Part shown: positions 38,869-51,076 of the stretch, piece after piece | Numbering within the stretch: position 1 is the first letter of the stretch | Layout of the letters: every line of letters starts with the position of its first letter | From: an uncultured Anaerolineaceae bacterium | GTDB lineage: Bacteria; Chloroflexota; Anaerolineae; Anaerolineales; Anaerolineaceae | Direction of reading: 5' to 3' | Assembly (NCBI GenBank): GCA_964437595.1 | Contig: CAYTHO010000008.1 | Location: 27,427-91,426 of the forward strand | DNA length: 64,000 bases | Translations under genes and position numbers: made by a program | Notes under the pieces: generated by a model | Databases searched by the model: none | The model's input: the letters and a program-made list of their open reading frames with translations, nothing else | What the model was told of the DNA's origin: nothing

Positions 38869-39360
38869 TTATTTTTGAGTGGGGTATCCGGCCTCTTCCC
38901 AGGCGCGGAACCCGCCGAATATCGGTTCGACGCGCGCGAACCCCATCTCGATCAGGATCTCCGCCGCACGGGCAGAGGATTCTTCGGCAGGTCAGGTGCA
39001 GTAAGTGATAATCCAATCATCGGCGTTCAACTCGCCGGCGCGGCTGGCTAATTCTCCAACCGGGATGTTGATTGCGCCGGGGATATGCGAGACGGCATAG
39101 GATTCCCGGCTGCGCACATCGACGAAGACGGCCTGTTGACTATCCAGGGCGGCTTTAGCGTCATCCAGCGTTACCCGTTGTATTTCTGGAAAGGGCAGGT
39201 TGGGGTCGTTGGTTGGCGCGGCCTGGGTTGCGGCGGCTTGCGGCTGGCCCGGGTTAAGGATTAACCAGATAACCGCGCCACCCATCAGCAGCAGGCCAAT
39301 GATAATCAGGACCAACGGCCGGGTGGACGTTGATGAAGGGTTGTTTTTTCTTCGTTTCAT
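38869..39360 (-). CDS. membrane-anchored single-domain rhodanese with in-frame TGA (38992-38994) at the catalytic-Cys position: candidate selenoprotein, alternatively a nonsense pseudogene
   Basis: The track ORF ends at the TGA after ...WIITYCT. The same frame continues for 40 codons (PAEESSARAAEILIEMGFARVEPIFGGFRAWEEAGYPTQK) to the TAA at 38869-38871 and completes the rhodanese fold. The N-terminus is MKRRKNN plus a TM helix. Confidence 0.6.
38959..38977 (-). promoter_or_regulatory. candidate bacterial SECIS-like hairpin downstream of the in-frame UGA
   Basis: The mRNA reads CUCUGCC-CGUGC-GGCGGAG. This gives 7 bp (one G-U) with a 5-nt loop containing GU. The stem starts 15 nt after the UGA. 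Confidence 0.35.
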
Positions 39361-39381: not shown

Positions 39382-40701
39382 CTACTTAATTGAAACTTCC
39401 TGTGCAGGGTTTGCCCGCGTTGCATGCCTCGGAATATCGAGAAGGAAGAGGAGGAAACCAGCCAGGCTGATTGCGCCGCTTAAAACCAGGGATAGGTTGA
39501 ACCCGATCTGTGCCGCCAGCCAGGGCGCCAGCAGCGGCGCAACAATAGATGATGAATATTGGAGCAGCATAGCTACCGCGACAAACTTGGCGCTGTACTC
39601 CACCGGTACGGTTTTCATCAATTCATCGAAGAGGACCAGGTTGAGCCCGGCGGTGAAAATACCGTTCAGCCCGGCGTAGATGATGACGGGCCAGACCTGA
39701 TGGGTCAGCCCGACCAGGATGGGAAACAGGGAACCGCCGAAAGTTGCAGCTACCAGAACCCATCGCGATCCGCGCCGGCGTGATTGGAGCGTCCAGAAGA
39801 AGTAACCGAGGATGACGGTGATATTGGCGGCGATACTGATCAGCGCGATCGAAGAATCGGCGGCGTTGAGCGTGCGAACATAATAAATTGGCAGCAAGGG
39901 CGCGGCCAGGGCGCCGCCGGTGAGAAAAACAAAGCGCTTGATGATATAGGCGACAAACGGCTTTTCACTGAGAACGTGGTGTAAATAGTCGCGGACCTCT
40001 TCCTTAACGGGCCGGCGCTGGTGAACCTGTTCGTATTGGGGATTGTCTGGCAGAACGATCTGGCTGGAATAATAATAGCTGATCAACCCACCGGCGGAAA
40101 GGCCGATGAAAACGACCTGGTAATTGAGGGGAAAAGGCAGCCAGTCGAGAATCTGCCCGGCCAGCAGCGCGGTTGTGGCATTGGTTAACCCCATGATCGA
40201 CCAGCGGTGGGTCATCAGCTCGTAGCGCCCGCCCGGGCCAGCGACGGAGTTCATCACCACCGAAAAGCAAATATTGACCACCGTTTGAGGAACCGTGACC
40301 AAGGCCCAAACACCCAGGATTCCAATCACAGAAGCAGTCTGGGGCAGGAAGATGGTAATGATGCCGGTCATTGCATAGCTAGACAGGACAATCAGCCGGG
40401 CGGCGCTGAACCAGGGCACAATGTTGCGCCGGGATTGAAGGAACTGCCCCAGGGGGAGCGACAGCAGCATGCCGGTGACGGCGGGCATAAAGGTGAGCAT
40501 GGTCACCGCAAAGGTGGAGCCGCCCAGGCGGGTGAGAAGAACCGGCAGGAACGGCGCGGCTGTGCTGGCCAGGGCCACGCCAACCGCATCGATCTGCACG
40601 TTGCGGAAGTTGATGGGGTTCATATCCGGCGCGGTCTGTGGAACGGTAAACCACCGGATAATTCGGGTGCGGAGTAATTTGAGGTTGGTTCGGACGCTCA
40701 T
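39382..40701 (-). CDS. MFS transporter
   Basis: About 12 TM helices in two halves. Its ATG (40701-40699) directly abuts the TAG (40704-40702) of the upstream WD40 gene. Confidence 0.8.
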   Translation of the reverse strand: MSVRTNLKLLRTRIIRWFTVPQTAPDMNPINFRNVQIDAVGVALASTAAPFLPVLLTRLGGSTFAVTMLTFMPAVTGMLLSLPLGQFLQSRRNIVPWFSAARLIVLSSYAMTGIITIFLPQTASVIGILGVWALVTVPQTVVNICFSVVMNSVAGPGGRYELMTHRWSIMGLTNATTALLAGQILDWLPFPLNYQVVFIGLSAGGLISYYYSSQIVLPDNPQYEQVHQRRPVKEEVRDYLHHVLSEKPFVAYIIKRFVFLTGGALAAPLLPIYYVRTLNAADSSIALISIAANITVILGYFFWTLQSRRRGSRWVLVAATFGGSLFPILVGLTHQVWPVIIYAGLNGIFTAGLNLVLFDELMKTVPVEYSAKFVAVAMLLQYSSSIVAPLLAPWLAAQIGFNLSLVLSGAISLAGFLLFLLDIPRHATRANPAQEVSIK

Positions 40702-42996
40702 CTATAACTCAATGTCAAATTCACCGACCTGGATGGTGGCAGTCTCCGCCAGCTCGATGTCAAATCGCTGGCGCCAGAGCGCCAGGTGGAGGGAAAAGTC
40801 CAGCCACTTCTTTTCGGACGCAGACAGGTGTATATCCTTGACCCGTTCTTGCAGCGCGGCGGCGGCAGGCTGGGCCGCCTTTCCGGATAAGCGGGTGGTC
40901 AGGAAGGTGCGCAGGTCCCAGGCGTTGATGCGCCCGCCGCTGTCGGCGCTGTACAGGAAGTCTCCCTGCGGCGACAGTACCAGCCCGGTGAGCGGCTGGC
41001 GGTGACCGGAAAGCTGGTCGATCACCTGCCCGGTGGAAAGGTTCCATACGGTAATCATACCCTTACTGTTGCCACCGGCCAGCACCTGGTCGTTTGGGTG
41101 CATGCACAGGGCGGTCAGCGGGCCGGCGGCATTTTCAAAGGCGCGCACCAGGCCGCCGCTGGAGAAGTTCCATAAGCGGATCAGGCCTTCGCGCCCCGAG
41201 CTGGCAACCAGTTCAGAGGTAGGGCTGGCGGCCAGGTGGGTGATGGTATCGGTATGGCCTTGCATCTCGCGCGCCGCGGCGCCATCTGGCAGGGTCCACA
41301 CGCGCACCTGGCAGTCGGCCCCGGCGCTGATCAGGTGGCTTCCAGATGCGCCCATAACCAGGCTGAAGATTTCCGCAGCGGAAGGGCGGAGCAGGTTCAA
41401 CCCCGGACCATGGGGGAAGCGCCAGAAACGGAGGGTGCCGTCGAACCCGGCGCTGTACAGGCTGCGCCCATCGGGATGAACTGCCAGTGCGCGGATCATG
41501 GCATGGTGGCCTTCAAAGGTCTTTACCAACTGCCCGCTGCTCAAGCGGAAAATGCGGATGCGGTTGTCGCCGGAGGCGCAGGCAAGCAGCTCGCCATCCG
41601 GGCTAAAAGCCAGCGCGCGGGTAACGGGGGCCGGGCCAATCAGCGAGGTGGGAAGCAGGTCGCCGTCGGGCAGGTTCCACTGCAGGATGTACTGGTCGCT
41701 GCGGCCAGCGGCAAGAACCCTGCCAGCGGGGTGCATGGCCAGGCAGGTGATGTCGGAAATGGGCGGGGCGTACAGCAGTTTCATCGGGTGGATGGACAGC
41801 GGGCTGGCCAGGCAGGCGCGCGAAAGCAGTACCAGACGGGAAAATTCCTCCCGCTCCTGCGCGTTTTCCGGCTGCCAGTTGTGCTTCTCCAGCCAATCCA
41901 GGATGGCGGCGCTCCAAACCGGCGGGGCCACCTGGGCTAACCGCCATAACTCAGCATGCTTTTCTTGTTCAGACAGGCGGCGGATAGTCAAATTCCAATC
42001 CGCATCGGTCAGGTCCTCAAGCCAGCGGACTTCCGCGGCGCTGCCAGTTTCACTCAGCCAGTCTAACTGGCCGGTGTGGCGGCTGTGTTCTAGCAGGCGG
42101 CGGCGCAGCGACCGCCCGGCAGCTTCGTAAGCGTTCACCAGCAGGTGATGATCGAAGTCGAGGGCGGCATACTGCGGCCAGGCTTCGGCCAGGAAGAAAA
42201 ACAACGCGCGCTGCTCGGCGTCTTGCGGCAAGTAACCGCGCGAAAGGATCAACCGGCGGGCATCCGGGTCTTCGTGCCGGATGAAGAGCAGGGCCAGCGC
42301 GTTGCGCGCCGCTTCCTGGGCCGGGGTTGGGGGCGCGTGCGAGGCGTCGGGGCCAGCCAGCCGTTCAAGCTGTTGGAGAACGACGGCGCGCTCGGCAGGG
42401 CGGAAATACGGGTAGCGCTCCACCAGGTCCAGCAGTCGTTCGGCGGTCTCGTCCTGAACGCTGGAAATGATCCGCGCCCAGTTATCCATCTGAACCGAAG
42501 CTGCCGTGGCTATCAACCGGCGTTGAAGCGCTGGAGACGCTTCTTCAAAATATGCCTGGGTCAGCACCGGAATGGATTCTTCGGGATACGACCGGCGCGC
42601 TTCCAGGTGGGTAAACCAGTCGAAGAGGGCGCGCAGCGCCGGAACGCCCGGCTGCCAGCCCTGGGTGATGATCTGCTGGCGAGCCGCCGGAAGATCGTCT
42701 TCGACTGAAAGGCGATAGATGGCATCTATCGCCTGGATGCGGCCTGCCTGGGCCATGCGGAGCAGCGCCTGAAACGCCTGCCCGCGCACGCCTGGCAGGG
42801 AATGTTTTGCAGCGGTTTGGTGAAGCAGGGTGATGGGTGATGCGGCTTCCTGAGCGGCATCCTCCGCCGACCATTCTTCCAAAGTGGCGATGACGCCCTT
42901 TAATAACAGCTCCTGCTGCACCTCGGCGGGAAGCGCCTCATGGATGCTGTTATTGAGGAGATCGGTAAACACGCGAAGCTCTTCGGAAGTGTACAC
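40702..42996 (-). CDS. HEAT-like helical repeat + WD40 beta-propeller protein with conserved FDIEL...GEFDIEL C-terminal tail (paralog of 46390-49143)
   Basis: The N-terminal roughly 400 aa are helical. The WD40 blades include ITCLAMHPAGRVLAAG..WNL, ALAFSPDGELLACASGDNRIRIF, HHAMIRALAVHPDGRSLYSAGFDGTLRFW, GHTDTITHLA..., LIRLWNF, GMITVWNL and GRINAWDL. GTG start 9 nt after the radical-SAM gene stop. Confidence 0.8.
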   Translation of the reverse strand: MYTSEELRVFTDLLNNSIHEALPAEVQQELLLKGVIATLEEWSAEDAAQEAASPITLLHQTAAKHSLPGVRGQAFQALLRMAQAGRIQAIDAIYRLSVEDDLPAARQQIITQGWQPGVPALRALFDWFTHLEARRSYPEESIPVLTQAYFEEASPALQRRLIATAASVQMDNWARIISSVQDETAERLLDLVERYPYFRPAERAVVLQQLERLAGPDASHAPPTPAQEAARNALALLFIRHEDPDARRLILSRGYLPQDAEQRALFFFLAEAWPQYAALDFDHHLLVNAYEAAGRSLRRRLLEHSRHTGQLDWLSETGSAAEVRWLEDLTDADWNLTIRRLSEQEKHAELWRLAQVAPPVWSAAILDWLEKHNWQPENAQEREEFSRLVLLSRACLASPLSIHPMKLLYAPPISDITCLAMHPAGRVLAAGRSDQYILQWNLPDGDLLPTSLIGPAPVTRALAFSPDGELLACASGDNRIRIFRLSSGQLVKTFEGHHAMIRALAVHPDGRSLYSAGFDGTLRFWRFPHGPGLNLLRPSAAEIFSLVMGASGSHLISAGADCQVRVWTLPDGAAAREMQGHTDTITHLAASPTSELVASSGREGLIRLWNFSSGGLVRAFENAAGPLTALCMHPNDQVLAGGNSKGMITVWNLSTGQVIDQLSGHRQPLTGLVLSPQGDFLYSADSGGRINAWDLRTFLTTRLSGKAAQPAAAALQERVKDIHLSASEKKWLDFSLHLALWRQRFDIELAETATIQVGEFDIEL

Positions 42997-43005
42997 AAGC
43001 GGACC

Positions 43006-43587
43006 TTACCAGGTCAGCGGGTCAATGCCGCTGAGGACGATATCGCCATCGGGTTTTACGATGATTTCGGCCTGAGGTACGGCTTCCAGGTCCGCGAGGG
43101 TGTAGCGGCCCGTCAAGAAATGCGCAACCTTGTTAGACGAGCCGATCAGTCCCTGGGCAAGGCGGCGCGAGGCATCATAGCGGCCAGCGATCAGCACATC
43201 CACGTGGGCCAGGAAGCGGTCTATCCCTTTCAGGTGATGAAGCTCATCCCAATCATACCCGCTAAAGACCAGGATGGAAAGGTTCGTCTGGTCACGCACC
43301 TGCTGGAGGAAGCGGGCCAGGGCGCGGTGCTGGTGGAGCGGCTCGCCGCCGCTGATGGTGAGGCCTTCGAGACTTTCCCCACCGGCGCTGTTTTTGATTT
43401 CAATGATGCGCTCCACCAGCTTTTCAACTGGCCAAATTTCTCCACCGCGTACGGCATGCGTCTCCGGGTTAAAACAGCCCGGGCAGCCGAGGGCGCAGCC
43501 CTGCACCCAAACTACGGTTCGCAAGCCGGGGCCGTTCACCCGGCTGGTCGGTTCCAAACGGTGCAGGCGGATATTTTTTTCTTGCAT
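43006..43587 (-). CDS. small radical-SAM protein of the NrdG/PflA glycyl-radical-activase type
   Basis: VNGPGLRTVVWVQGCALGCPGCFNPETH carries the CX3CX2C cluster in the NrdG-like context. It also has ISGGEP and VLIAGRYD. At 193 aa there is no SPASM or other extension. Confidence 0.75.
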   Translation of the reverse strand: MQEKNIRLHRLEPTSRVNGPGLRTVVWVQGCALGCPGCFNPETHAVRGGEIWPVEKLVERIIEIKNSAGGESLEGLTISGGEPLHQHRALARFLQQVRDQTNLSILVFSGYDWDELHHLKGIDRFLAHVDVLIAGRYDASRRLAQGLIGSSNKVAHFLTGRYTLADLEAVPQAEIIVKPDGDIVLSGIDPLTW

Positions 43588-43591
43588 GGGC

Positions 43592-43807
43592 TTACGAGGA
43601 TGCTTTCAGGTGCTGATCCTGGTCGACGTCCAGCGGGTTCTCTTGCTCTAAGGCTTCCGGAGACATGATGCGGGCGATAATCTCCCCTCCCAGGGCTTCC
43701 TCCAACTCCTTGGTAAGCTCAAGGCATTTTAATCCCTGCACGCCGCGCACCTGTATCTGCACCTGCCCATCTTTACCAATGACCACTTCTATTTCTTGGA
43801 GTTCCAT
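43592..43807 (-). CDS. DUF2997-like small protein
   Basis: 71 aa. EIEVVIGKDGQVQIQVRGVQGLKCLELTKELEEALGGEI matches my memory of the DUF2997 pattern (I..DG.V...V.G..G..C...T..LE..LG). Acidic tail. AAGGAAGGA RBS. Confidence 0.6.
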   Translation of the reverse strand: MELQEIEVVIGKDGQVQIQVRGVQGLKCLELTKELEEALGGEIIARIMSPEALEQENPLDVDQDQHLKASS

Positions 43808-43825
43808 CTTTTTCCTTCCTTCGGA

Positions 43826-44206
43826 CTAAGCCATGCGGCGCAGGACGATGCGGATCTGCCCGGTCTCTTCGACCTTTTCCTCCACCATGCTGAATCCCTG
43901 CTGTTCGAGCTTGGCGCGGGAGGCATGGTAAGCGTAGCGCTGCATCAGCCTTTGGGTGAAATCCTTCTGGTTGATGCCGCGCACGCCGAACCAGTCGGCA
44001 ATGATCTCGTAGGTCTCTCCGCGTTTGCGGAGGCCGATATCGTAGCTGAGGGGCAGCTTGATGCGGATATCAACCTGGCTTTTTTGCCCGCCGAAGCCCC
44101 GAACTTCCTGTTCCCCTTCTTCATAGCTAAAGCCCAGGTCTTTGATGGCCTTGAGGGCAAATTCTTTATCCATGATCTTTGTCTGGATCCGCGAAAAATG
44201 CGACAT
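43826..44206 (-). CDS. DUF1257 (Ycf35-like) protein
   Basis: MSHFSRIQTKI.D...L..A..DLGF...VRGFGGQ...DI......YDIG.......YE.IADWF......F...L.QRYAY.....L..QGF is the characteristic DUF1257 N-terminus and layout. ATG 44206 has a GGAGAG RBS. Confidence 0.7.
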   Translation of the reverse strand: MSHFSRIQTKIMDKEFALKAIKDLGFSYEEGEQEVRGFGGQKSQVDIRIKLPLSYDIGLRKRGETYEIIADWFGVRGINQKDFTQRLMQRYAYHASRAKLEQQGFSMVEEKVEETGQIRIVLRRMA

Positions 44207-44218
44207 ATTTCTCTCCAA

Positions 44219-45838
44219 TCAGGTCAGTTTAACGACCGGGTAATCCTTATGGGTCAGACGGCCTGTGATGAGATCGCGCGCGGTAATGGTCAGGCGCTTG
44301 TTTTCATCTACTGAGAATTCTACCTCAAAGCGCGCTTCTCCGCGGCGGGCGGGCGGCTCGGCGGTGAGAAAGGTCTGGTTGTGCTCATTCATCCAGAACA
44401 TGGCGCGCTTTTCCTGCTCGGCGGGGGTCAGGCGGGTGATGCGCGCCGCGCCGCTGGGGTCGAAGACCAGCTCGATCGGCTGAGCACTGGTTTTCTGGCG
44501 CACCTCGCCCAGCTCGTAGATGGCGATACCGAGGTGCTTCTGGTCATCATAAGATGCTTTAATCGACAGGCGCGTGACGGGCTCATTGGTGGGGTAGGGT
44601 GTGCCGCGCTCGACGATGGTGCGGTAATCGTATTTGCCCTTTTCTGGGTTCACGTAGCGGATGGCGTAATCGTGCTGGATGTGGTCGAAGAAATCGATCC
44701 CCGCGATGAAAGAGGCCGCGCCGCGCGCCACGGCATCCAGCGGGCGCTCAAATTTGACCCGCTCGCGCCCAAAGATGTGGCGCAGCGTGCTCTGCACCGC
44801 CGGGATCTGGCTGCTGCCGCCTACCATCAGGGCGGCCTGGATGCTGGTTTCATCGTAGCCGCGCTCGGTAGCGGCGTTAATCGCGGAGCGGATAGTCTGG
44901 TTGATCTCGGTGAACAGGTCGTGGTCGTCGAGCAGCTTCTCAAAGCTGGCGCGGGTGAAATCCGCCGCCAGCACCGCGCCGGTTTCGGGGTTAACTACGC
45001 TGAGGTCAGCCTGCTCGGCAAAGGACAGTTTTTCTTTGATGCGCTCGCATTCCACCAGCAGGGCGGTGCTGATGCGGCGCACATCTTCGTCGCTGTCGGA
45101 ACGGTAGTTTTGGCGCAGTACATCCTGGAAGATCCACTGGTCGATGGTGGCGCCGCCGATATCGCGCCCGGCCTTGCCCAGCACCCGGCAGCGCCGCCCG
45201 CTGACCAGGGAGCCTGTGCCGCCCGGCTTGCTTTCTTCAGCTTCAATCAGCACCACCGCGGCATGCATGGTCCCGCCGCCAAAATCGAAAAGCAGGTACA
45301 CGCTGCCCGGCTGGATGTGCGCGCCGTAGCCCAGCGCAGCGGCGGACGGTTCATCGATCAGGCGGAAGCGCGGCATGCCGGCGCTTTCAGCTACGGATGC
45401 CAGCCAGTTTTCGTAGTGCTCGAAGGCTTCCACGGGCACGCTCAAGGCCACTTCTTCATCCCGGAAGCCGGTTTCCTGGGCGGCGAAGACCAGCACGCTG
45501 GTGAGAAAATCCTGACCGGCAGTGTAGGGCGTTATCTCGCGCCCTGCCACGCGCACTTTGTTCGGGCTGCGGTGGCTGATGTAGCGCTTCATCCAGCGGA
45601 AGGTGCTGGGCGACTGGCGCAGCCCGTGTTGAATGACCTGGCTGCCGATCCAGGTGCGGTTATCCGGCGTGTAATGGATCAGGGATGGGATCACGGAAAT
45701 GGTCTCATCTCCCTGCTTTTCAAGCATGCCAAATTCGGGGATGTGCAGCGGCACACCCTGTTGAAGAGTCTCATCCCACAGGGCAACAACGGTATTGGAT
45801 GTACCAAAATCGACAGCCAGGCGTCCGGGCATATCCAC
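44219..45838 (-). CDS. non-canonical Hsp70-family ATPase (actin-fold NBD + beta-sandwich, no helical lid)
   Basis: Phosphate-1 is LAVDFGTSNT, connect is IDEPSAAALGYG, phosphate-2 is LLFDFGGGTMHAAVV, and adenosine is ALMVGGSSQIPAVQSTL. A C-terminal beta-rich segment ends at aa 539 without a lid or EEVD. The start is GTG 45838, or ATG 45832 with a GAGGTG RBS. Confidence 0.8.
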   Translation of the reverse strand: MDMPGRLAVDFGTSNTVVALWDETLQQGVPLHIPEFGMLEKQGDETISVIPSLIHYTPDNRTWIGSQVIQHGLRQSPSTFRWMKRYISHRSPNKVRVAGREITPYTAGQDFLTSVLVFAAQETGFRDEEVALSVPVEAFEHYENWLASVAESAGMPRFRLIDEPSAAALGYGAHIQPGSVYLLFDFGGGTMHAAVVLIEAEESKPGGTGSLVSGRRCRVLGKAGRDIGGATIDQWIFQDVLRQNYRSDSDEDVRRISTALLVECERIKEKLSFAEQADLSVVNPETGAVLAADFTRASFEKLLDDHDLFTEINQTIRSAINAATERGYDETSIQAALMVGGSSQIPAVQSTLRHIFGRERVKFERPLDAVARGAASFIAGIDFFDHIQHDYAIRYVNPEKGKYDYRTIVERGTPYPTNEPVTRLSIKASYDDQKHLGIAIYELGEVRQKTSAQPIELVFDPSGAARITRLTPAEQEKRAMFWMNEHNQTFLTAEPPARRGEARFEVEFSVDENKRLTITARDLITGRLTHKDYPVVKLT

Positions 45839-45841
45839 CTC

Positions 45842-46393
45842 TTACTCCACAATGGCCTTGTAAACCGTCTTCCCCTGGTACGTCACGCCTGCAAAGCGGA
45901 CGGTTACCGCCTGACCAGCCTGCGGCTGGACGCTTTCGTTGATGGGGGTGTGGTGGTTCGGATCATAGGCGACCTGCTCGCCCACCTGCCCGGCGTATTG
46001 AATGCCATAGCGTTCGAGCGCGCGGGGGATGCGCCGGGCTACCGAGAGCACATCGCGCGCCTGGACGGGCTTCCCCTGCTTTTCAAGAAGGTCGGCCTGG
46101 GTGAGGATCTGGCTGGTAGGTCCGGCCAATTCGCCGAAGAGGCGTGCGAACTGCGCGTCCACCGTTTCAGCAATCACCTGTTCCTGGCGCAGGCGCAGGC
46201 GTTCGATTTCCTGCTTGAGGGCGGCAATGCTCTGGCGGCTGCTGTCCAACTCCATGCGCAGGGACTGGTTCTCTTTTTGCAAGCTGAGCCATTCCGCGGG
46301 CTGTACCGTCTGGGCGGTTGGGGCGGAGTGAACAGGACTCCCGGCAGCGGGTTCGCGCGCGGGTTTCAGAAGGTTAGAGAACCATTTTTTCAT
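45842..46393 (-). CDS. GrpE-like nucleotide-exchange factor
   Basis: An N-terminal coiled coil (LRMELDSSRQSIAALKQEIERLRLRQEQ) is followed by a C-terminal beta domain with VAYDPNHHTP...VTVRFAGVTYQGKTVYKAIV (compare GrpE FDP..HEA...GY....RV.RPA.V.V). ATGA overlap with the upstream gene. Confidence 0.7.
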   Translation of the reverse strand: MKKWFSNLLKPAREPAAGSPVHSAPTAQTVQPAEWLSLQKENQSLRMELDSSRQSIAALKQEIERLRLRQEQVIAETVDAQFARLFGELAGPTSQILTQADLLEKQGKPVQARDVLSVARRIPRALERYGIQYAGQVGEQVAYDPNHHTPINESVQPQAGQAVTVRFAGVTYQGKTVYKAIVE

Positions 46394-49143
46394 GCGGATT
46401 TTTCGGCCTCATCCAGGATAATATCGAACTCCCCGTACTGGATCAGCGGCGCTTCCTCAATCTGGATATCGTAACGGAACCGATATTGTAGCAAAGTTCG
46501 CAGAAATTTCAAGCCGTTGCGGACGGGTTCTGGCAGCGATTGATATTCACCGAGGGCCATTACCGTGGAGATCTGGTCGTGCGAAGCCGTCGACAGCGGC
46601 TGGGCAAACAGCTCGGGAATATCCAGCACGCGCAGGTCCCACAGCACCAGGGTGGCTTCGCTGGTTCCGGTGGCCATAAATGCCCCCTGCTGCGACACGC
46701 GCAGCGAAGTCAGCGTTCCCTCTGGCGCAAATCCCTGCCCCATCAGTCGCATATCCGGCCAGTGAATGAAGCGCATCTGGCCCTCAGCCCCAGCCGTTAC
46801 CACCAGCGGGTGCCCGGGTAGGAAATGGATTCCGCGAACCGGCTGGCTGTGCTGAGTCAGCACAGCCCTGCGCGGGCGCTGGGGCAGGGAGTTATGGTAG
46901 TACAGCCCCACCTGCCCATTATGCTGCCCGGCCAGCAGGTACTTCCCATCTGGCGAGAAGACGGCATCCTGAGCGGTGCCTTTCCGAAAGCCATCCGCGC
47001 GGGAGGCCAGGTATGGATTGCCAGGGACGAGGTTCAACTCGGGCAGGCGGACCAGGCTGAGGCGGTCGTGAAGCAGGGCGACGGTGGTATTATCTGGCGA
47101 AATGGCTGCCGAGCGCGCCCAGAAGAGGAACTTTTTCTCCGAAATTTTCTTTTTTCGGGCCAGGTCCCATAAGAAAACGTGGCTGTCGCGCCCGGCGGTG
47201 AGCAGCAGGTCATCGCCCACCGGCTCGAGCGCGGTAACGGTGCCCTCGTGGGCGGTAAGTTGGAAGGCTTCCTCCGGGCCGTAGGCGTATACCGAACACA
47301 TGGCATCGTTATTGGTGCGCTCGGCGCACAGCAGCAGCCCGCGCGGCGTGAAATGTACCTTCCCGACGGAGTGTAGAAAATCTTTCCATACTCGCTCGAC
47401 CGCGGCGGTCTGGAAGTTCCACAACACCACTTTGCGCTGGCTGGTGGCGATAGCCAGCACCGGGCGGTTGGGTGAAAAGGCAACATCATTGATGCGGCCT
47501 TTTACCTTCAAGGTAGCGCGAGAATGCGCCAGCGGTAAGACCCGGGTTAGCTCGGGTCCGGATAAGAGAATGGGCTGCTCGGATAGGCGCACCAACTCAT
47601 CATATACGCCCTGGTCGGCTTCCGCAGGCGGGTGCCAGTTGGCCCTGGACAGGATTTGGATGATTTCCAGGCTGAAAGGGAGGGCCAGGTCAGGCGCCAG
47701 GCGCCAGAGGCGCTCGTACTCGCGGTTTTCGGTCAAAACGCGGATCAGCAGGGCAGCCTCGCTGGGGTTGACCTTCTCCACCCGCGAGCGGTAGTCCACC
47801 CCGGCAAGGATGGTGAGGTAGTCGGTGCGCCTGGCAGCCTGCACGCGCGCGGCGATGCGCTGGCGCATCTCTGGTGGGCTGCCTTCATAAATCGCGCGCA
47901 GCATGCTCTGGTCAAAATCGAGCGCGTCATACTCGGCCCACTGGTCGGTAAGAAAGTAGAAGAGGGAGCGGGTTTCTGGCGCGCGGGGAGCATACCCGCA
48001 GGTCAATGCAACCTCCCTGGCTGCGGCCACATCCTGGGCCGCGGTTGGATCTTCGCCAGGGACATCGTTCGCTTCAATGGCTCGCCCGCACAATGCATCG
48101 CGCGTCTCCGCATCCTTCAGGTTCGCCAGTGCGCGGCGGGCATTCTGCTGGATGGTTTCATCGGGGTCGCGGGTGGCTTGCAACAAGAACGGCAGCCCCT
48201 GCGGGGTGGCTTTTTCGGCGATGTGCATTTGCCCGGCTTTGAGCGCAACCAGCAGGCGCACCCGGGCAGGGCTGCGTGCTTTATAGCCGGCCTGAAGCAG
48301 GGCGGTTTCAAGCAGCGGGCTGCGGTTCTCAGCCCACAGCCGGCAGAACTCATCTACGGCGGCCTGGTTATTGAGATGTGGAAGGCATTGGCGAGCGCGG
48401 GCGGCGATCTCTTTGTCGGTATCCTCGCAGGCAGCTACCAGTGGGGCCACGACCTCGGATCTGCCGCTCATGACGGTTTCGAGCTGGTTAATCAAAAGCG
48501 CGGAGAGCACGCGCGCGGCGGGTGGTTTTTGGGCTACGTAACCGGCCTGGCGCATGATCTCGGCCAGCGCGGGGCTGCGGCTGGACTGCCAGGCCTGGCA
48601 TAAGGAGTCGATCGAGGCGGGGTTGCGCAGGCCGCGGATGACCTCCCCGGCCCGGGCGGCGATCTGCGGATCGCGGTCCGAACAGGCCTGAATCAACGGC
48701 GCGACCAGGTCGGCGCTGCCGCGGGTGATAGTGTTCGCTGCGTCGGGGCGCAGCAGGCTGAGCCGCAGCGCGCTGAGCAGGCGCACGCTGGCGGGGTGGT
48801 CAGCGATGCGGTTGTAGCCCAGCGCGATCTGTTCCAGGTCGGGATGGCGGGTTTCTGCCCACACCCCCCACACAGCATCAATGCCGGTGGAGTAGTTGAT
48901 GCGCTGCAGCGTCTGCCCAGCCATGGCGCGCACATCGGCGTCGCTGTGAAAAGCCAGAACCACCGCCAGCGACTGGGCTGCCAGCCAGTTCCCCGCCAGC
49001 GCGGATTCGTTCAACGCCGCAGTGACCCGGCGGTGCATCCAGCCGCCGATGATGGGCACATCCTGCTCCAGTATCCAGCGCCAGCGTTGGATGCGCTCGG
49101 CTTCGTTATTTTCAGTTGGCCGGTTGGGTTGGTTCTTCGTCAC
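46390..49143 (-). CDS. HEAT-repeat + WD40 beta-propeller protein with conserved YDIQI...GEFDIIL C-terminal tail (paralog of 40702-42996)
   Basis: Three roughly 95-aa HEAT-like modules each carry ...VRLL.AL......APL..AC.D.D..IAARA.....L.N....D..C..W. A central helical region shares LF(F/Y)FL...W..Y.ALDFD with the paralog. WD-like blades include DVAFSPNRPVLAIATSQRKVVLWNF, LLTAGRDSHVFLWDL, AVFSPDGKYLLAGQHNGQVGLY, VVTAGAEGQMRFIHW and MATGTSEATLVLWDL. GTG start. Confidence 0.8.
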   Translation of the reverse strand: MTKNQPNRPTENNEAERIQRWRWILEQDVPIIGGWMHRRVTAALNESALAGNWLAAQSLAVVLAFHSDADVRAMAGQTLQRINYSTGIDAVWGVWAETRHPDLEQIALGYNRIADHPASVRLLSALRLSLLRPDAANTITRGSADLVAPLIQACSDRDPQIAARAGEVIRGLRNPASIDSLCQAWQSSRSPALAEIMRQAGYVAQKPPAARVLSALLINQLETVMSGRSEVVAPLVAACEDTDKEIAARARQCLPHLNNQAAVDEFCRLWAENRSPLLETALLQAGYKARSPARVRLLVALKAGQMHIAEKATPQGLPFLLQATRDPDETIQQNARRALANLKDAETRDALCGRAIEANDVPGEDPTAAQDVAAAREVALTCGYAPRAPETRSLFYFLTDQWAEYDALDFDQSMLRAIYEGSPPEMRQRIAARVQAARRTDYLTILAGVDYRSRVEKVNPSEAALLIRVLTENREYERLWRLAPDLALPFSLEIIQILSRANWHPPAEADQGVYDELVRLSEQPILLSGPELTRVLPLAHSRATLKVKGRINDVAFSPNRPVLAIATSQRKVVLWNFQTAAVERVWKDFLHSVGKVHFTPRGLLLCAERTNNDAMCSVYAYGPEEAFQLTAHEGTVTALEPVGDDLLLTAGRDSHVFLWDLARKKKISEKKFLFWARSAAISPDNTTVALLHDRLSLVRLPELNLVPGNPYLASRADGFRKGTAQDAVFSPDGKYLLAGQHNGQVGLYYHNSLPQRPRRAVLTQHSQPVRGIHFLPGHPLVVTAGAEGQMRFIHWPDMRLMGQGFAPEGTLTSLRVSQQGAFMATGTSEATLVLWDLRVLDIPELFAQPLSTASHDQISTVMALGEYQSLPEPVRNGLKFLRTLLQYRFRYDIQIEEAPLIQYGEFDIILDEAEKSA

Positions 49144-49181
49144 AATCTGCCTTTATCTTCTCGGTTCGCCGCTACCGGCGC

Positions 49182-49255
49182 GGCGCAACGTACTATTTCT
49201 GCGGCGCGAACGCCACTACTTGCGTGGCGCGAACGCCACTATTTGCGTGGCGCGA
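49182..49255. repeat. tandem roughly 23-nt repeats forming alternative hairpins at the AAA-gene stop / intercistronic region
   Basis: ggcgcgaacgccactacttgcgt (49203-49225) and ggcgcgaacgccactatttgcgt (49226-49248) are flanked by degenerate copies at 49182-49202 and from 49249. Read on the minus strand the array is CGCCAC-GCAAAUA-GUGGCG-UUCG-CGCCAC-GCAAGUA-GUGGCG-UUCG-CGCCGC. Confidence 0.7.
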
Positions 49256-50795
49256 TTTCCAGTCGGACAAACTGGTTCTCGGCATCCTGCGCTTCCACAA
49301 AAGAAGCCGATTGAGCGCGGCCTTCGCGCAGCCACTCGCGCAAGTAGTGGATCACCTCGCGCTGCGAGACGGAGAGCGGCACCTGGCGAGACAGCGCGCT
49401 CATAATGTCCGCGGTGGTGAACTCGCGCTCGTTGTCGTTGAAGCCAATGTACATGGCATCGATGATGGCTTGCTCGATCTCCGCGCCAACGTAGCCTTCG
49501 GAGGCGGCAGCCAGGCGGTCGAGGTCGAAATCCTGGGGCAGGCGGCGGCGCTTGCGCAGGTGTACGGCGAAGACCTCTTTGCGTTCCTCCAGGGTGGGTA
49601 GGTCCAGGAAGAAAATTTCGTCAAAGCGGCCTTTACGCAGCAGCTCGGGCGGCAGGCTGGAGATATCGTTGGCAGTGGCTACCACGAACACCGGGGCCTT
49701 TTTCTCCTGCATCCAGGTGAGCACGGTGCCGAACACGCGCGTGCTGGTGCCGCTGTCCAGCCCGCCGTGGGCCAGGGCCTTTTCCATTTCATCAATCCAC
49801 AGCACGCAGGGAGCGATGGTTTCGGCCAGGTGCAGGGCGCGGCGGGTGCGCTCTTCCGATTCGCCAATCAGGCTGCCGAACAGCGCGCCGACATCCAGGC
49901 GCAGGAGGGGCATGCGCCACAACCCGCCGATCATCTTGGCGGTGAGGCTTTTACCGGTGCCGGGGATGCCCAGCAGAGCAATGCCCTTGGGCATGGGCAG
50001 GCCGTATTCGCGGGCGCGGTCGGAGAAAGCCCGGTCGCGCAGGCGCAGCCATTCCTTGAGCACTTTCAGGCCGCCAACGTTATCCAGCGACTCCGTGAAG
50101 GGGAAGAATTCCAGGGCTTCGCTTTCGCGGATGATCTGCTTCTTTTCATCGGTTACCAGGTCGATATCGGTATCGTCGAGCATGCCGTTGCGCACGATGG
50201 CTTTGGCAAATACCCGCTGGGCCTGAGAAGCGGTGAGGCCTACCGCGGCCTTGACCAGCTTTTCTTTCCCTAAAGCCGTCAGGTTAATGCGCACGCCGGA
50301 AATGTGGGTCAGGTCATCGAGCACCTTCTGCAGCTCGCTGGCGTCGGGCAGGGGAACAGCCTCCAGGACGATCTCATCCTTTAGTTCATCGGGGATGCGC
50401 GAGGTTGGGGTAAGGATGAGGATGGATTTCTTGGTGAATTTCATTTCCTGCGAGAGACTGCGCAGCTTGCGGCGCACCTGGGCGTTCTGCCAGAAATCGT
50501 GAAAATCTTTGAGCACAAACAGGGTCGCCACCTGACCGTCCATTTTCCCAATCTGCTCCAGCGCTGCCAGCGGGTCGCGGGCGGCGGGTAAGCTGCCGCT
50601 GCTCGCAGAAACCCATTGGAATCCATCCGCTACGTCCCAACTCATGCTGCTGCGGTGCGTTTCCTCGCACATGCGTTTTATCATCTGCAGGGCGCGTTCT
50701 TCTTCGTGCGTGGTCAGGACAATGAAGGTGAAGCGCGCGCGCAGATAAGTGTCTAACTGCTTTTCAAACCTTGGCATTTCTTTTTCGATCGTCAT
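49239..50795 (-). CDS. Ycf46-type AAA+ ATPase
   Basis: The C-terminal AAA module has Walker A GIPGTGKS, Walker B VLWIDEME, and [21 protein letters not shown] roughly 250-aa N-terminal region lacks a P-loop. [48 protein letters not shown] strongly resembles cyanobacterial/plastid Ycf46 as I remember it. Confidence 0.8.
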
Positions 50796-51076
50796 TCAGG
50801 CCAGTCTCCCTGTGTTTTTCTGGAGCTTTTGGATTTCGATAGGAATGAGGATTCTTGCCCCGAATATTATATTTTACGCGCATTCGTTCAACTTTTCAAA
50901 TAATTCGAACAATTGTTTTGTTATTGAAACCAAAAATAAGCCATCCATCCTATTTGCTGATAAAATCCCAGGAAAAGGCTGGGGCAAAACTCGACACGTT
51001 CCGTTCTTTTCCCCGAAACCAATCGCAAAGGTAATCCACGTGGTTTGTCTAAGATGGTGAATTGAGGAGGAACAAA

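Follow-up and report, generated by a model that had tools for sequence, protein, structure and literature searches.

The disaggregase formed by ClpB/Hsp104 with DnaK and GrpE combines a hexameric AAA+ remodeller with an Hsp70 and its exchange factor, the M-domain of ClpB being the docking site for the Hsp70. Cdc48/p97 acts on adaptor-bound substrates, and the red-type Rubisco activase CbbX pulls the C-terminal tail of RbcL. Cyanobacteria possess a conserved duf2997-ycf35-fed7 cluster, in which Fed7 is a [4Fe-4S] ferredoxin that binds a DnaJ-like protein and is found as a DnaJ fusion in photosynthetic eukaryotes (PMC4284462), and in red-algal plastids the losses of ycf35, a DUF1257 gene, and of ycf46 coincide (PMC5940233). 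Hsp70 and GrpE also accompany repeat proteins (beta-propellers and TPR) in the conflict systems of Kaur et al. 2020 (PMC7159879), and an Hsp70 with HEAT-like repeats, CnuD, is part of the CoCoNuT systems (PMC11090510). Here we describe a gene cluster in a 64-kb stretch of DNA from an uncultured Anaerolineaceae bacterium (contig CAYTHO010000008.1), the whole of which we call the window. Its eight minus-strand open reading frames (ORFs), packed between positions 50795 and 40702, encode an AAA+ ATPase, a HEAT/WD40 protein, a GrpE, a lid-less Hsp70, a DUF1257 protein, a DUF2997 protein, a radical-SAM activase and a second HEAT/WD40 protein. This gene cluster is real, is kept across several phyla and is undescribed in the literature and databases searched. 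We propose, tentatively and with a probability of roughly 45%, that it encodes a machine that is dedicated to ATP-driven protein remodelling, has spread horizontally and engages HEAT/WD40 proteins tagged at their C-terminal tails.

Like the disaggregase, the cluster joins an AAA+ remodeller to an Hsp70 and a GrpE, with all ATPase motifs intact. Its AAA+ protein, however, is a single-ring member of the Cdc48/FtsH clade that has an unrelated N-domain and no M-domain; moreover, there is no DnaJ here, the Hsp70 lacks a lid, and the apparent clients are a defined tagged family rather than aggregates. With Cdc48/p97 and CbbX it shares a classical-clade AAA+ protein and, as a putative engagement point, a specific short stretch at one end of a folded client or adaptor. 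In contrast to both, no UBX, SHP or ubiquitin elements are found here, the pore loop is non-aromatic and the presumed clients are HEAT/WD40 proteins. The cyanobacterial genes resemble the cluster in the adjacency of DUF1257, DUF2997 and a [4Fe-4S] protein, in the link to the Hsp70 system that Fed7 makes through its DnaJ-like partner and, in the case of Ycf46, in an AAA+ protein of about 500 residues with a C-terminal ATPase module (PMC4284462, PMC5940233). The iron-sulphur (Fe-S) partner here is instead a radical-SAM activase, and genes for the AAA+ protein, Hsp70, GrpE and tailed HEAT/WD40 proteins stand in the same operon.

The systems of Kaur et al. 2020 further share with the cluster a bias to filamentous or multicellular bacteria and horizontal spread, but they contain MoxR-vWA or GAP1/DO-type GTPases, FNIII/DnaJ fusions and effector/EAD domains (PMC7159879), and no MoxR, vWA, GTPase or EAD domain is present in any protein of the cluster. 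The name Ycf46 has no occurrence in the full text of that paper, which was also not returned by a full-text search for DUF1257/DUF2997 (PMC7159879). CnuD likewise has the nucleotide-binding and substrate-binding domains of an Hsp70 without the canonical set of co-chaperones; its ATPase motifs are degenerate, however, and its associates are the McrB GTPase, McrC and HEPN nucleases (PMC11090510), whereas the ATPase residues of the Hsp70 described here are invariant and McrBC is missing. The original prediction, made from the letters of the window, knew of no characterised pathway or catalogued defence system of this composition, and this still holds for the sources searched. No system model of PADLOC-DB v2 was matched by the component set, the only matches being generic ones (IetA-like for the AAA module; PDC-M61B, E = 1.8e-5; pVip, E = 0.003; and the WD40 stretch of HEAT-ARM_XIII), and the searchable literature holds no description of it, although we put the chance that one exists in subscription-only literature at 15-20%. 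A known defence system is ruled out by the generic PADLOC matches and by the different architectures in Kaur 2020, Kaur 2021 and the CoCoNuT papers. The cluster is also absent from the viral contigs of IMG/VR, where only generic Hsp70s of 21-29% identity were found; this negative result, together with the fact that phages carry the AAA+ gene alone or the DUF pair alone, rules out a phage-borne cluster.

Conservation of the gene cluster

Relatives of the cluster were collected in two surveys. The first, seeded on Hsp70, covered 185,579 species with one genome each and confirmed 184 loci, 80 of which were retrieved; neighbours were counted as same-strand genes in the 42 loci with full flanks, and identities are given as medians relative to the window. 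Because this survey was conditioned on Hsp70, a second was run on metagenome contigs with the 45-residue C-terminal tail of the HEAT/WD40 proteins as seed, using a narrower alignment after the first tail alignment had proved too diverse for a metagenome scan. This tail-seeded survey yielded 58 loci, 19 of which have at least 5.5 kb on both sides and were used for counting. The surveys together provide 138 related loci, and individual loci are cited below by their L numbers.

Most of the 80 Hsp70-seeded loci come from Chloroflexota, with 11 from Cyanobacteriota, three each from Planctomycetota and Verrucomicrobiota, two from Candidatus Moduliflexus, and single loci from Armatimonadota, Bacteroidota, Acidobacteriota (Blastocatellia) and Desulfobacterales. 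Across these phyla the Hsp70 is 56-91% identical to that of the window (median about 65%), L005 being the closest locus at 91%. Its neighbours in the 42 full-flank loci are genes for HEAT/WD proteins (39 loci, median identity about 33%), DUF1257 (39, 53%), DUF2997 (39, 61%), the AAA+ protein (35, 71%), the radical-SAM enzyme (29, 52%), GrpE (20, 39%), an MFS transporter (16, 54%) and a rhodanese-domain protein (9, 44%). All of them share its strand, and their order is largely constant. When the tail is the seed, the AAA+ gene is found in 17 of the 19 loci, those for Hsp70 and the radical-SAM enzyme in 13 each, those for DUF1257 and DUF2997 in 12 each, and that for GrpE in seven. Both surveys recover the same cluster, and the adjacency on which the original prediction was built is conserved across phyla and not accidental.

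What had been predicted as an eight-gene unit is indeed a conserved multi-component neighbourhood, but one that is modular rather than fixed at eight genes and that probably continues past position 40702 of the window into the MFS and rhodanese genes. Some loci contain the AAA+ gene and a tailed-protein gene only (L212, L203, L171, L218), others add the Hsp70 gene to these two without the DUF genes (L191, L223), and one has the DUF genes, the radical-SAM gene, a tailed-protein gene and the AAA+ gene without Hsp70 (L177). The order of the modules is rearranged in L048, L073, L076 and L187. The minimal core is the AAA+ protein plus one or more tail-tagged HEAT/WD40 proteins, to which two optional modules are added: Hsp70, sometimes accompanied by GrpE, and DUF1257-DUF2997, which the radical-SAM enzyme may join.

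A deeply divergent branch (L187, L194 and L195) has the order radical-SAM enzyme, AAA+, WD, Hsp70, DUF1257 and DUF2997. All modules are kept in this branch at identities to the window of 57% for the AAA+ protein, 44-45% for Hsp70, 37-40% for DUF1257 and 36-40% for the radical-SAM enzyme, and the association must therefore be old.

Cyanobacterial and Moduliflexus copies of the cluster (L081, L034, L049, L062, L064 and L076) are interrupted by genes of a selfish or defence type, namely those for toxins, an AAA_21 ATPase with its small partner, DUF559, RRXRR, DUF3800 and DUF2283. In the copy on the 226-kb plasmid pPg_01 of Pseudanabaena galeata (L081, 118362-143945), genes for RelE/ParE, PIN and MazF toxins are interleaved with the cluster, as is that for an AbiEii-type AAA_21 ATPase. 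Neither a consistent effector nor a Fed7-like gene was found among the unassigned ORFs of the cyanobacterial, Planctomycetota, Verrucomicrobiota and Moduliflexus loci, which are assorted toxin-antitoxin, DUF559, RRXRR, DUF3800, MBL and MiaB-like genes.

The HEAT/WD40 proteins and their C-terminal tail

The larger HEAT/WD40 protein of the window (917 residues; 46390..49143, minus strand) consists of a HEAT-repeat alpha-solenoid (HEAT_2), a conserved helical middle domain, a WD40 propeller and the tail, and its orthologues hold the same position in most loci. Its paralogue (764 residues; 40702..42996, minus strand) is built in the same way from a HEAT-like solenoid, the middle domain, a seven-blade WD40 propeller and the tail. 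In an AlphaFold model of the smaller protein, with a mean predicted local distance difference test (pLDDT) score of 89.6, helices occupy residues 1-310, the middle domain residues 330-397, the propeller residues 404-694, further helices residues 696-743 and the tail residues 744-764. A fold search with this model returned generic WD40 propellers only, its propeller matching seven-blade structures from bacteria and eukaryotes. The 917-residue and 764-residue types are kept as stable orthologues across Anaerolineae genera, and in a close relative (L002) these paralogues are 60-64% identical to those of the window versus 70-80% for their neighbours.

The common C-terminal tail that had been noticed in the two proteins is real. 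In the larger protein the motif is RFRYDIQIEEAPLIQYGEFDIIL (46414..46482, minus strand), which is followed by seven residues before the C-terminus, and in the smaller it is RQRFDIELAETATIQVGEFDIEL (40705..40773, minus strand), where the C-terminus falls exactly at the end of the motif. The consensus R-[FY]-D-I-E-x(9-10)-G-E-F-D-I-E-[LI] is present in nearly every complete HEAT/WD40 protein of the loci. Among 109 HEAT/WD40-family ORFs in the 80 Hsp70-seeded loci, the 94 that are complete and bear the motif were scored. Those without it are truncated or frameshifted (e.g. L005, L029, L078), cut by contig ends (L006, L055, L060), generic WD40 proteins (L031, L064, L080) or proteins with diverged tails (L056, L062). 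Within the 94 scored tails, the first element has R in 82, F or Y in 91, D in 79, I in 81 and E or Q in 78, followed by I, L or V; the spacer is 9-10 residues long in 85; and the second element has G in 83, E in 84, F in 85, D in 93, I in 91, E in 61 and L or I in 92. No more than two residues follow the motif in 81 of the 94, and the protein bodies share only 23-60% identity with those of the window. The motif is confined to the HEAT/WD40 family, being present in no other type of protein in the loci or the window, and it is equally conserved in cyanobacterial loci without the radical-SAM gene. Some loci have a single tailed paralogue, others several, with six or more at the upper end (L008, L029 and L081, the locus on the Pseudanabaena plasmid).

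In the AlphaFold model the tail has pLDDT values of 64-71, falling below 50 at residues 747-749, versus more than 90 for the body of the protein, and it is predicted not to be packed against that body. An invariant, flexible segment that stands strictly at the C-terminus of proteins otherwise unlike each other is the hallmark of a tag that docks on a conserved partner. For this partner the AAA+ protein is the prime candidate because it is the most constant neighbour of the tailed proteins and usually the immediate one. A role of the tail glycine as a glycyl-radical site was also considered and is unlikely, given that the tail has no RVxG[FWY] motif and that its conservation is the same without the radical-SAM gene.

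A 1,216-codon frame in a Phormidiaceae metagenome-assembled genome (L022, 2099-5749; 1,199 residues from the first start) joins the N-domain of the AAA+ protein directly to HEAT units. It contains about ten near-identical 88-residue HEAT units, the middle domain and the tail, and has neither the ATPase module nor a propeller. This frame is either a true Rosetta-stone fusion that links the N-domain with the tailed proteins or an assembly artefact.

The AAA+ ATPase

The AAA+ gene (49239..50795, minus strand) encodes a single-ring ATPase of the classical clade with 518 residues (PF00004 AAA plus AAA_lid_3), which matches the D2 domain of p97/Cdc48 with E = 1e-49. Its Walker A (GIPGTGKS) and Walker B (WIDEME) motifs, sensor 1 and arginine fingers are intact, and the motifs are invariant in 46 homologues. 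Pore loop 1, GSL[IV]GESE, is likewise invariant in these homologues, with a leucine in place of the aromatic residue, and we take the loop to be closer to that of p97 D1 than to that of D2. The family-specific N-domain of about 250 residues matched no Pfam or NCBIfam model. Across phyla, the protein is 65-91% identical in the Hsp70-seeded loci. Its architecture of about 500 residues with a C-terminal AAA module is compatible with Ycf46, for which neither Pfam nor NCBIfam has a model. A conserved extension past the AAA lid at the C-terminus (49239-49400 in the window) has no counterpart in the p97/FtsH alignments.

Relatives of the AAA+ protein also occur in phages. Over its full length the protein matches phrog_8638 (E = 7e-153), and phage relatives that include the N-domain are 34-35% identical over 96%; there are 57 such phage records without DUF, Hsp70 or WD40 partners. 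They include proteins of cluster-O mycobacteriophages, Corndog gp96 (L084, 3402-5102) and a protein of the Streptococcus satellite phage Javan368 (L085, 3471-5048).

The Hsp70 and GrpE proteins

The Hsp70-family ATPase (537 residues; 44219..45832, minus strand) matches PF00012 with E = 2.7e-33, and its profile matches the Hsc70 and DnaK structures over the nucleotide-binding domain with E = 6e-32. All 21 homologues retain the catalytic residues K84, E163, D185 and T190. The alignment of the beta substrate-binding domain covers Hsc70 residues 461-497, and the protein stops about 20 residues further on, so that there is no helical lid. All DnaK and HscA equivalog scores are far under their cutoffs, with the HscA and DnaK models scoring about alike, and identity to DnaK is about 25%. 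Because the lid is missing and the equivalog scores are far below the cutoffs, we assign the protein to a distinct Hsp70 subfamily. Two further features were noted: the interdomain segment DF[YF]DHIQHDY replaces the hydrophobic VLLL-type linker of DnaK and is strict enough to serve as a search pattern, and the substrate-binding domain carries an insertion of about 40 residues.

The gene upstream (45842..46393, minus strand) encodes a GrpE-type nucleotide exchange factor of 183 residues, with E = 3.8e-5 against Pfam GrpE. Although the single sequence scores below the Pfam cutoff (23.9 versus 25.8 bits), a profile of 16 family members matches the GrpE structures 8gb3, 4ani and 1dkg (E = 3e-7 to 2e-5) over residues 14-172, a span that includes the coiled coil, the helical bundle and the beta domain. 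In addition, the Pseudanabaena orthologue is named grpE by RefSeq through its Prokaryotic Genome Annotation Pipeline (PGAP). By these profile matches, the protein is a divergent but genuine GrpE. No J-domain was found in the window and 81 related loci by tblastn with the J-domain of E. coli DnaJ (best E > 8). The missing J-domain and lid and the low identity to DnaK rule out a housekeeping dnaK locus, in line with the original prediction, which had argued from the lack of DnaJ and HrcA, the missing lid and the short, divergent GrpE.

The DUF1257, DUF2997 and radical-SAM proteins

The DUF1257 (Ycf35-family) protein has 126 residues (43826..44206, minus strand) and matches its model with E = 5e-28 and 97.8 bits versus a gathering threshold of 22.2. 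Its N-terminal MSH-S motif is invariant. The AlphaFold model has a pLDDT of 91 and no significant match in the PDB (the best is Bcs1, E = 0.01, template-modelling score 0.29), and no fold is therefore assigned; a faint likeness to the beta chains of Ntn-hydrolases is not significant. The DUF2997 protein of 71 residues (43592..43807, minus strand) matches with E = 3.5e-16 and 59.2 bits versus a gathering threshold of 24.1, and has a single invariant cysteine and an ALGG motif. Sequence searches of the PDB found no relative of either protein. DUF2997 is always beside or close to DUF1257, including in cyanophage P-SSM2.

In that Prochlorococcus phage, PSSM2_178 and PSSM2_179 form an overlapping DUF2997-DUF1257 pair (L083, 2308-2887), from which it follows that phages transfer the two DUF genes together. 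The pair adjoins a carbamoyltransferase gene ('Nol') and two DUF6561 genes. As the product of 'Nol' is a carbamoyltransferase, it is ruled out as an AAA+ partner of the phage pair.

The radical-SAM enzyme (193 residues; 43006..43587, minus strand) belongs to the NrdG/PflA class of activases (Fer4_12, E = 3.5e-32). It resembles these activases over its full length, its nearest solved structures are those of the PFL-activating enzyme (E = 1e-10), and it also matches phrog_626. The motifs CX3CX2C, GGEP and the C-terminal GSxNK..H are conserved in 50 homologues. It differs from NrdG in scoring 108 bits against the TIGR02491 equivalog, under the cutoff of 126, and in a family-specific C-terminal extension of about 35 residues; moreover, no glycyl-radical enzyme (NrdD, PFL or similar, RVxG[FWY]) is encoded in the window or the 138 related loci. 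The DUF1257-DUF2997-radical-SAM genes travel as a block (L048, L073, L177). The radical-SAM gene is present in Chloroflexota, Planctomycetota and Desulfobacterales loci and absent from those of the oxygenic cyanobacteria (11 of 11), and the unassigned ORFs of the cyanobacterial copies contain no Fed7-like gene. The DUF pair thus recurs with a [4Fe-4S] partner and with links to the Hsp70 system, and of all assemblies of these components the operon of the window is the most complete. With the proteins described in this and the preceding sections, profile hidden Markov model searches bear out the earlier assignments of HEAT-WD40, GrpE-like, lid-less Hsp70, DUF1257, DUF2997, NrdG-type radical-SAM and WD40 proteins.

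Proposed mechanism and alternative explanations

In the remodelling machine that we propose, the core would be the Cdc48/p97-like single-ring AAA+ protein and the HEAT-WD40 proteins tagged with R[FY]DIE-x(9-10)-GEFDIE[LI]-COOH. The flexible tag may be the handle by which a conserved machine recognises divergent HEAT/WD40 proteins, most likely through the N-domain or the pore of the AAA+ protein, which would then alter the conformation or assembly of the tagged proteins, or of cargo held on the propeller or solenoid. The lid-less, catalytically intact Hsp70 with its own GrpE would work beside the AAA+ protein as DnaK and GrpE do with ClpB. DUF1257 and DUF2997 would form a further module with a [4Fe-4S] partner, the radical-SAM enzyme here and Fed7 in cyanobacterial housekeeping loci, that may supply the machine with redox- or radical-dependent input or modify one of its components. 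Gene content, linkage across phyla, the conservation and position of the tag, the intact ATPase motifs and the modular pattern are all observed; what binds the tag, in which direction the machine acts and what it does for the cell we infer from them. The original prediction had offered two hypotheses, a remodelling machine with the propeller proteins as clients or adaptors and a sensing or conflict-type system, and we favour the former because the tail is universal, C-terminal and predicted to be unpacked. A housekeeping-type role is favoured by the very high conservation of the core, the stable orthology of the paralogues in Anaerolineae and the chromosomal context.

Several observations weigh against this proposal. 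The pore loop of the AAA+ protein departs from the aromatic-hydrophobic-Gly pattern with which classical AAA+ proteins thread their substrates, an aromatic pore-loop residue being typical of strong threading motors. The Hsp70 would need a trigger without a J-domain partner nearby, and the strongly acidic tail does not resemble classical DnaK-binding peptides. The loci encode no protease or other output that might explain the purpose of remodelling. The Hsp70 gene stands alone in L061, L063, L065 and L066, and a tailed-protein gene stands alone in L181 and L185, within 10 kb. The role given to the module of the radical-SAM enzyme and the DUF proteins is the weakest step of the model.

The variable HEAT/WD40 proteins could instead be the sensors or decoys of a conflict or immune-type system, coupled by their tails to ATPase transducers that set a threshold, with the radical-SAM enzyme or an unrecognised partner as effector; this would follow the logic of the nucleoside triphosphate-dependent, chaperone-based conflict systems of multicellular prokaryotes. 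A patchy spread over phyla at a core identity of 56-91% implies horizontal transfer, and the carriers are mostly filamentous or multicellular (Anaerolineae, Caldilineae, Pleurocapsales, Pseudanabaena and Moduliflexus); among Anaerolineae, the window included, the cluster nevertheless has housekeeping neighbours and conserved synteny, and it is missing from the IMG/VR viral contigs. The changing number of tailed paralogues and the near-identical HEAT units of L022, which point to recent repeat amplification, would suit sensors, but the paralogues are stable orthologues and not hypervariable, as the identities in L002 illustrate. The setting of the Pseudanabaena plasmid copy among toxins and an AbiEii-type ATPase and the DUF559 and RRXRR insertions in cyanobacterial copies also fit a conflict system, as do the precedents of the GTPase-Hsp70-GrpE systems (PMC7159879) and of the Hsp70 with HEAT-like repeats in the CoCoNuT restriction systems (PMC11090510). 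Against them stand the PADLOC result, with IetA-like AAA hits in place of a system match, and the absence of any nuclease, protease, pore-forming or NADase effector from all 138 loci, which extends what had been predicted for the window alone. On balance we consider a conflict system doubtful. 

An activase of the NrdG/PflA class with all its motifs and no cognate glycyl-radical enzyme nearby might, on the other hand, place a radical or a modification on DUF2997, DUF1257 or the glycine of GEFDIE, while Hsp70/GrpE and the AAA+ protein load, protect and recycle the oxygen-sensitive target in the manner of HscA/HscB with IscU. Such maturation or repair of a radical or Fe-S protein would agree with the block formed by the DUF genes and the radical-SAM gene, with the absence of the latter from the loci of oxygenic cyanobacteria, with the rhodanese gene downstream in this lineage, with the nearly equal scores of the Hsp70 against the HscA and DnaK models, and with the pairing of the DUF genes with Fed7 and its DnaJ-like partner in cyanobacterial housekeeping loci (PMC4284462). 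We nevertheless judge it very unlikely: the tail and the two DUF proteins lack the RVxG[FWY] signature and are just as conserved without the radical-SAM gene, that gene is absent from 13 of the 42 and six of the 19 full-flank loci, and no Fed7-like gene was found in the cyanobacterial copies. Less likely still is that two or three independent modules (AAA+/WD, Hsp70/GrpE and DUF1257/DUF2997/radical-SAM) were joined by co-transfer or shared regulation and are not one machine. The components can certainly occur apart, the AAA+ gene in mycobacteriophages and a Streptococcus satellite phage, the DUF pair alone in P-SSM2 and with fed7 in cyanobacteria, and the Hsp70 gene or the AAA+/WD genes by themselves in some loci; their order also changes in the four rearranged loci named above. 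In spite of these rearrangements, most loci, from at least five phyla, have them together on a single strand and joined by overlaps or by gaps close to zero, and the divergent branch retains them all.

The proposal of a tail-engaging remodelling machine can be taken further, to a reading that we think unlikely as it stands. The FDIE tail might be a new portable recognition tag, a 'remodelling degron', that plugs open-ended HEAT/WD40 receptors into a Ycf46-type AAA+ protein gated by the radical-SAM/Fe-S module of DUF1257-DUF2997 and helped by a J-independent, lid-less Hsp70, the whole being a hitherto unrecognised cross-phylum machine for protein surveillance or a sensor array. If this were true, it would reveal what the plastid orphans Ycf35 and Ycf46 do biochemically, a role that has long been sought. 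By analogy with Hsp104/Hsp70 and prions, a bolder variant would have the tail's two pseudo-repeats fold into a templating beta-arch, with the AAA+ protein and Hsp70 in control of a switch in assembly.

DUF1257/Ycf35, DUF2997 and the Ycf46-like AAA+ protein have been 'conserved hypothetical' for decades in the genomes of cyanobacteria and red-lineage plastids. The cluster links the plastid orphan ycf35, and provisionally ycf46, to the Hsp70 system and puts these orphan families in a physical context with Hsp70, GrpE, a radical-SAM enzyme and tagged partner proteins. It thereby opens Ycf35, DUF2997 and, provided that orthology holds, Ycf46 to experiments on their function. It also presents three unusual cases: a bacterial Hsp70 that seemingly does its work with neither J-protein nor lid, a glycyl-radical-type activase without a glycyl-radical enzyme, and a C-terminal motif more strictly conserved than the 700-900-residue proteins that carry it. 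Should the cluster be a conflict system after all, its architecture would be a new one, in which repeat-protein sensors are coupled to chaperones without a STAND NTPase.

Gene layout and chromosomal setting

ORF calling on the window recovers the eight predicted minus-strand genes, and the Joint Genome Institute (JGI) gene calls on the 98-kb source contig (metagenome 3300023203) give the same proteins for genes 2-8 (917, 183, 537, 126, 71, 193 and 764 residues). The called ORFs have the coordinates given above except for those of Hsp70 (44219-45838, 539 residues) and DUF1257 (43826-44218), where they begin further upstream. The first of these starts with GTG at 45838; the ATG at 45832 is the start in homologues and in the JGI call, and is most likely the true one. 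Of the junctions originally predicted, the ATGA overlap at 46390-46393, where the start of the GrpE gene lies over the stop of the 917-residue HEAT/WD40 gene, the gaps of 12, 18, 4 and 9 nt and the 95-nt spacer stand, the 12-nt gap upstream of the DUF1257 gene holding only with the ATG at 44206 as start. The predicted gap of 3 nt before the Hsp70 gene corresponds to the GTG start and becomes 9 nt with the ATG. 

About 75 nt upstream of the AAA+ start, within an AT-rich intergenic region, lies a candidate sigma-70-like promoter (TTGAAA-17-TAAAAT; 50871..50899, minus strand) that agrees with the consensus at 10 of 12 positions, which is a consensus match only and not proof of function. At the other end, an MFS transporter gene (439 residues; 39382..40701, minus strand) follows the stop of the second HEAT/WD40 gene with a gap of 0 nt, and 21 nt further downstream is a gene for a membrane-anchored rhodanese-domain protein (122 residues; 38992..39360, minus strand). 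The operon probably runs on into these two genes, which makes ten genes in this lineage. The 16 Hsp70-seeded loci with the MFS gene in the same position are all of the Anaerolineae type, and three of the 19 tail-seeded loci have it as well; the MFS and rhodanese genes are an Anaerolineae-specific appendix outside the cross-phylum core. Other genes of the window encode SMC, glycogen-metabolism enzymes, MiaA, CinA and glycoside hydrolases, and the setting is an ordinary housekeeping context on the chromosome of an uncultured Chloroflexota bacterium.

The 95-nt spacer between the AAA+ gene and the first HEAT/WD40 gene (49144-49238) had been described as structured. It is filled by a 23-nt GC-rich hairpin unit (CGCGCCACGCAARTAGTGGCGTT), present in about four imperfect tandem copies (49167..49255, minus strand) that overlap the stop codon of the AAA+ gene, and the fold energy of the spacer is unremarkable (z = -1.4). 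A riboswitch or attenuator is unsupported by this value, and the spacer is instead a local tandem hairpin repeat. The two best copies of the unit are found nowhere else in the window, and the repeats may be an element for mRNA stability or processing, or a small repeat insertion.

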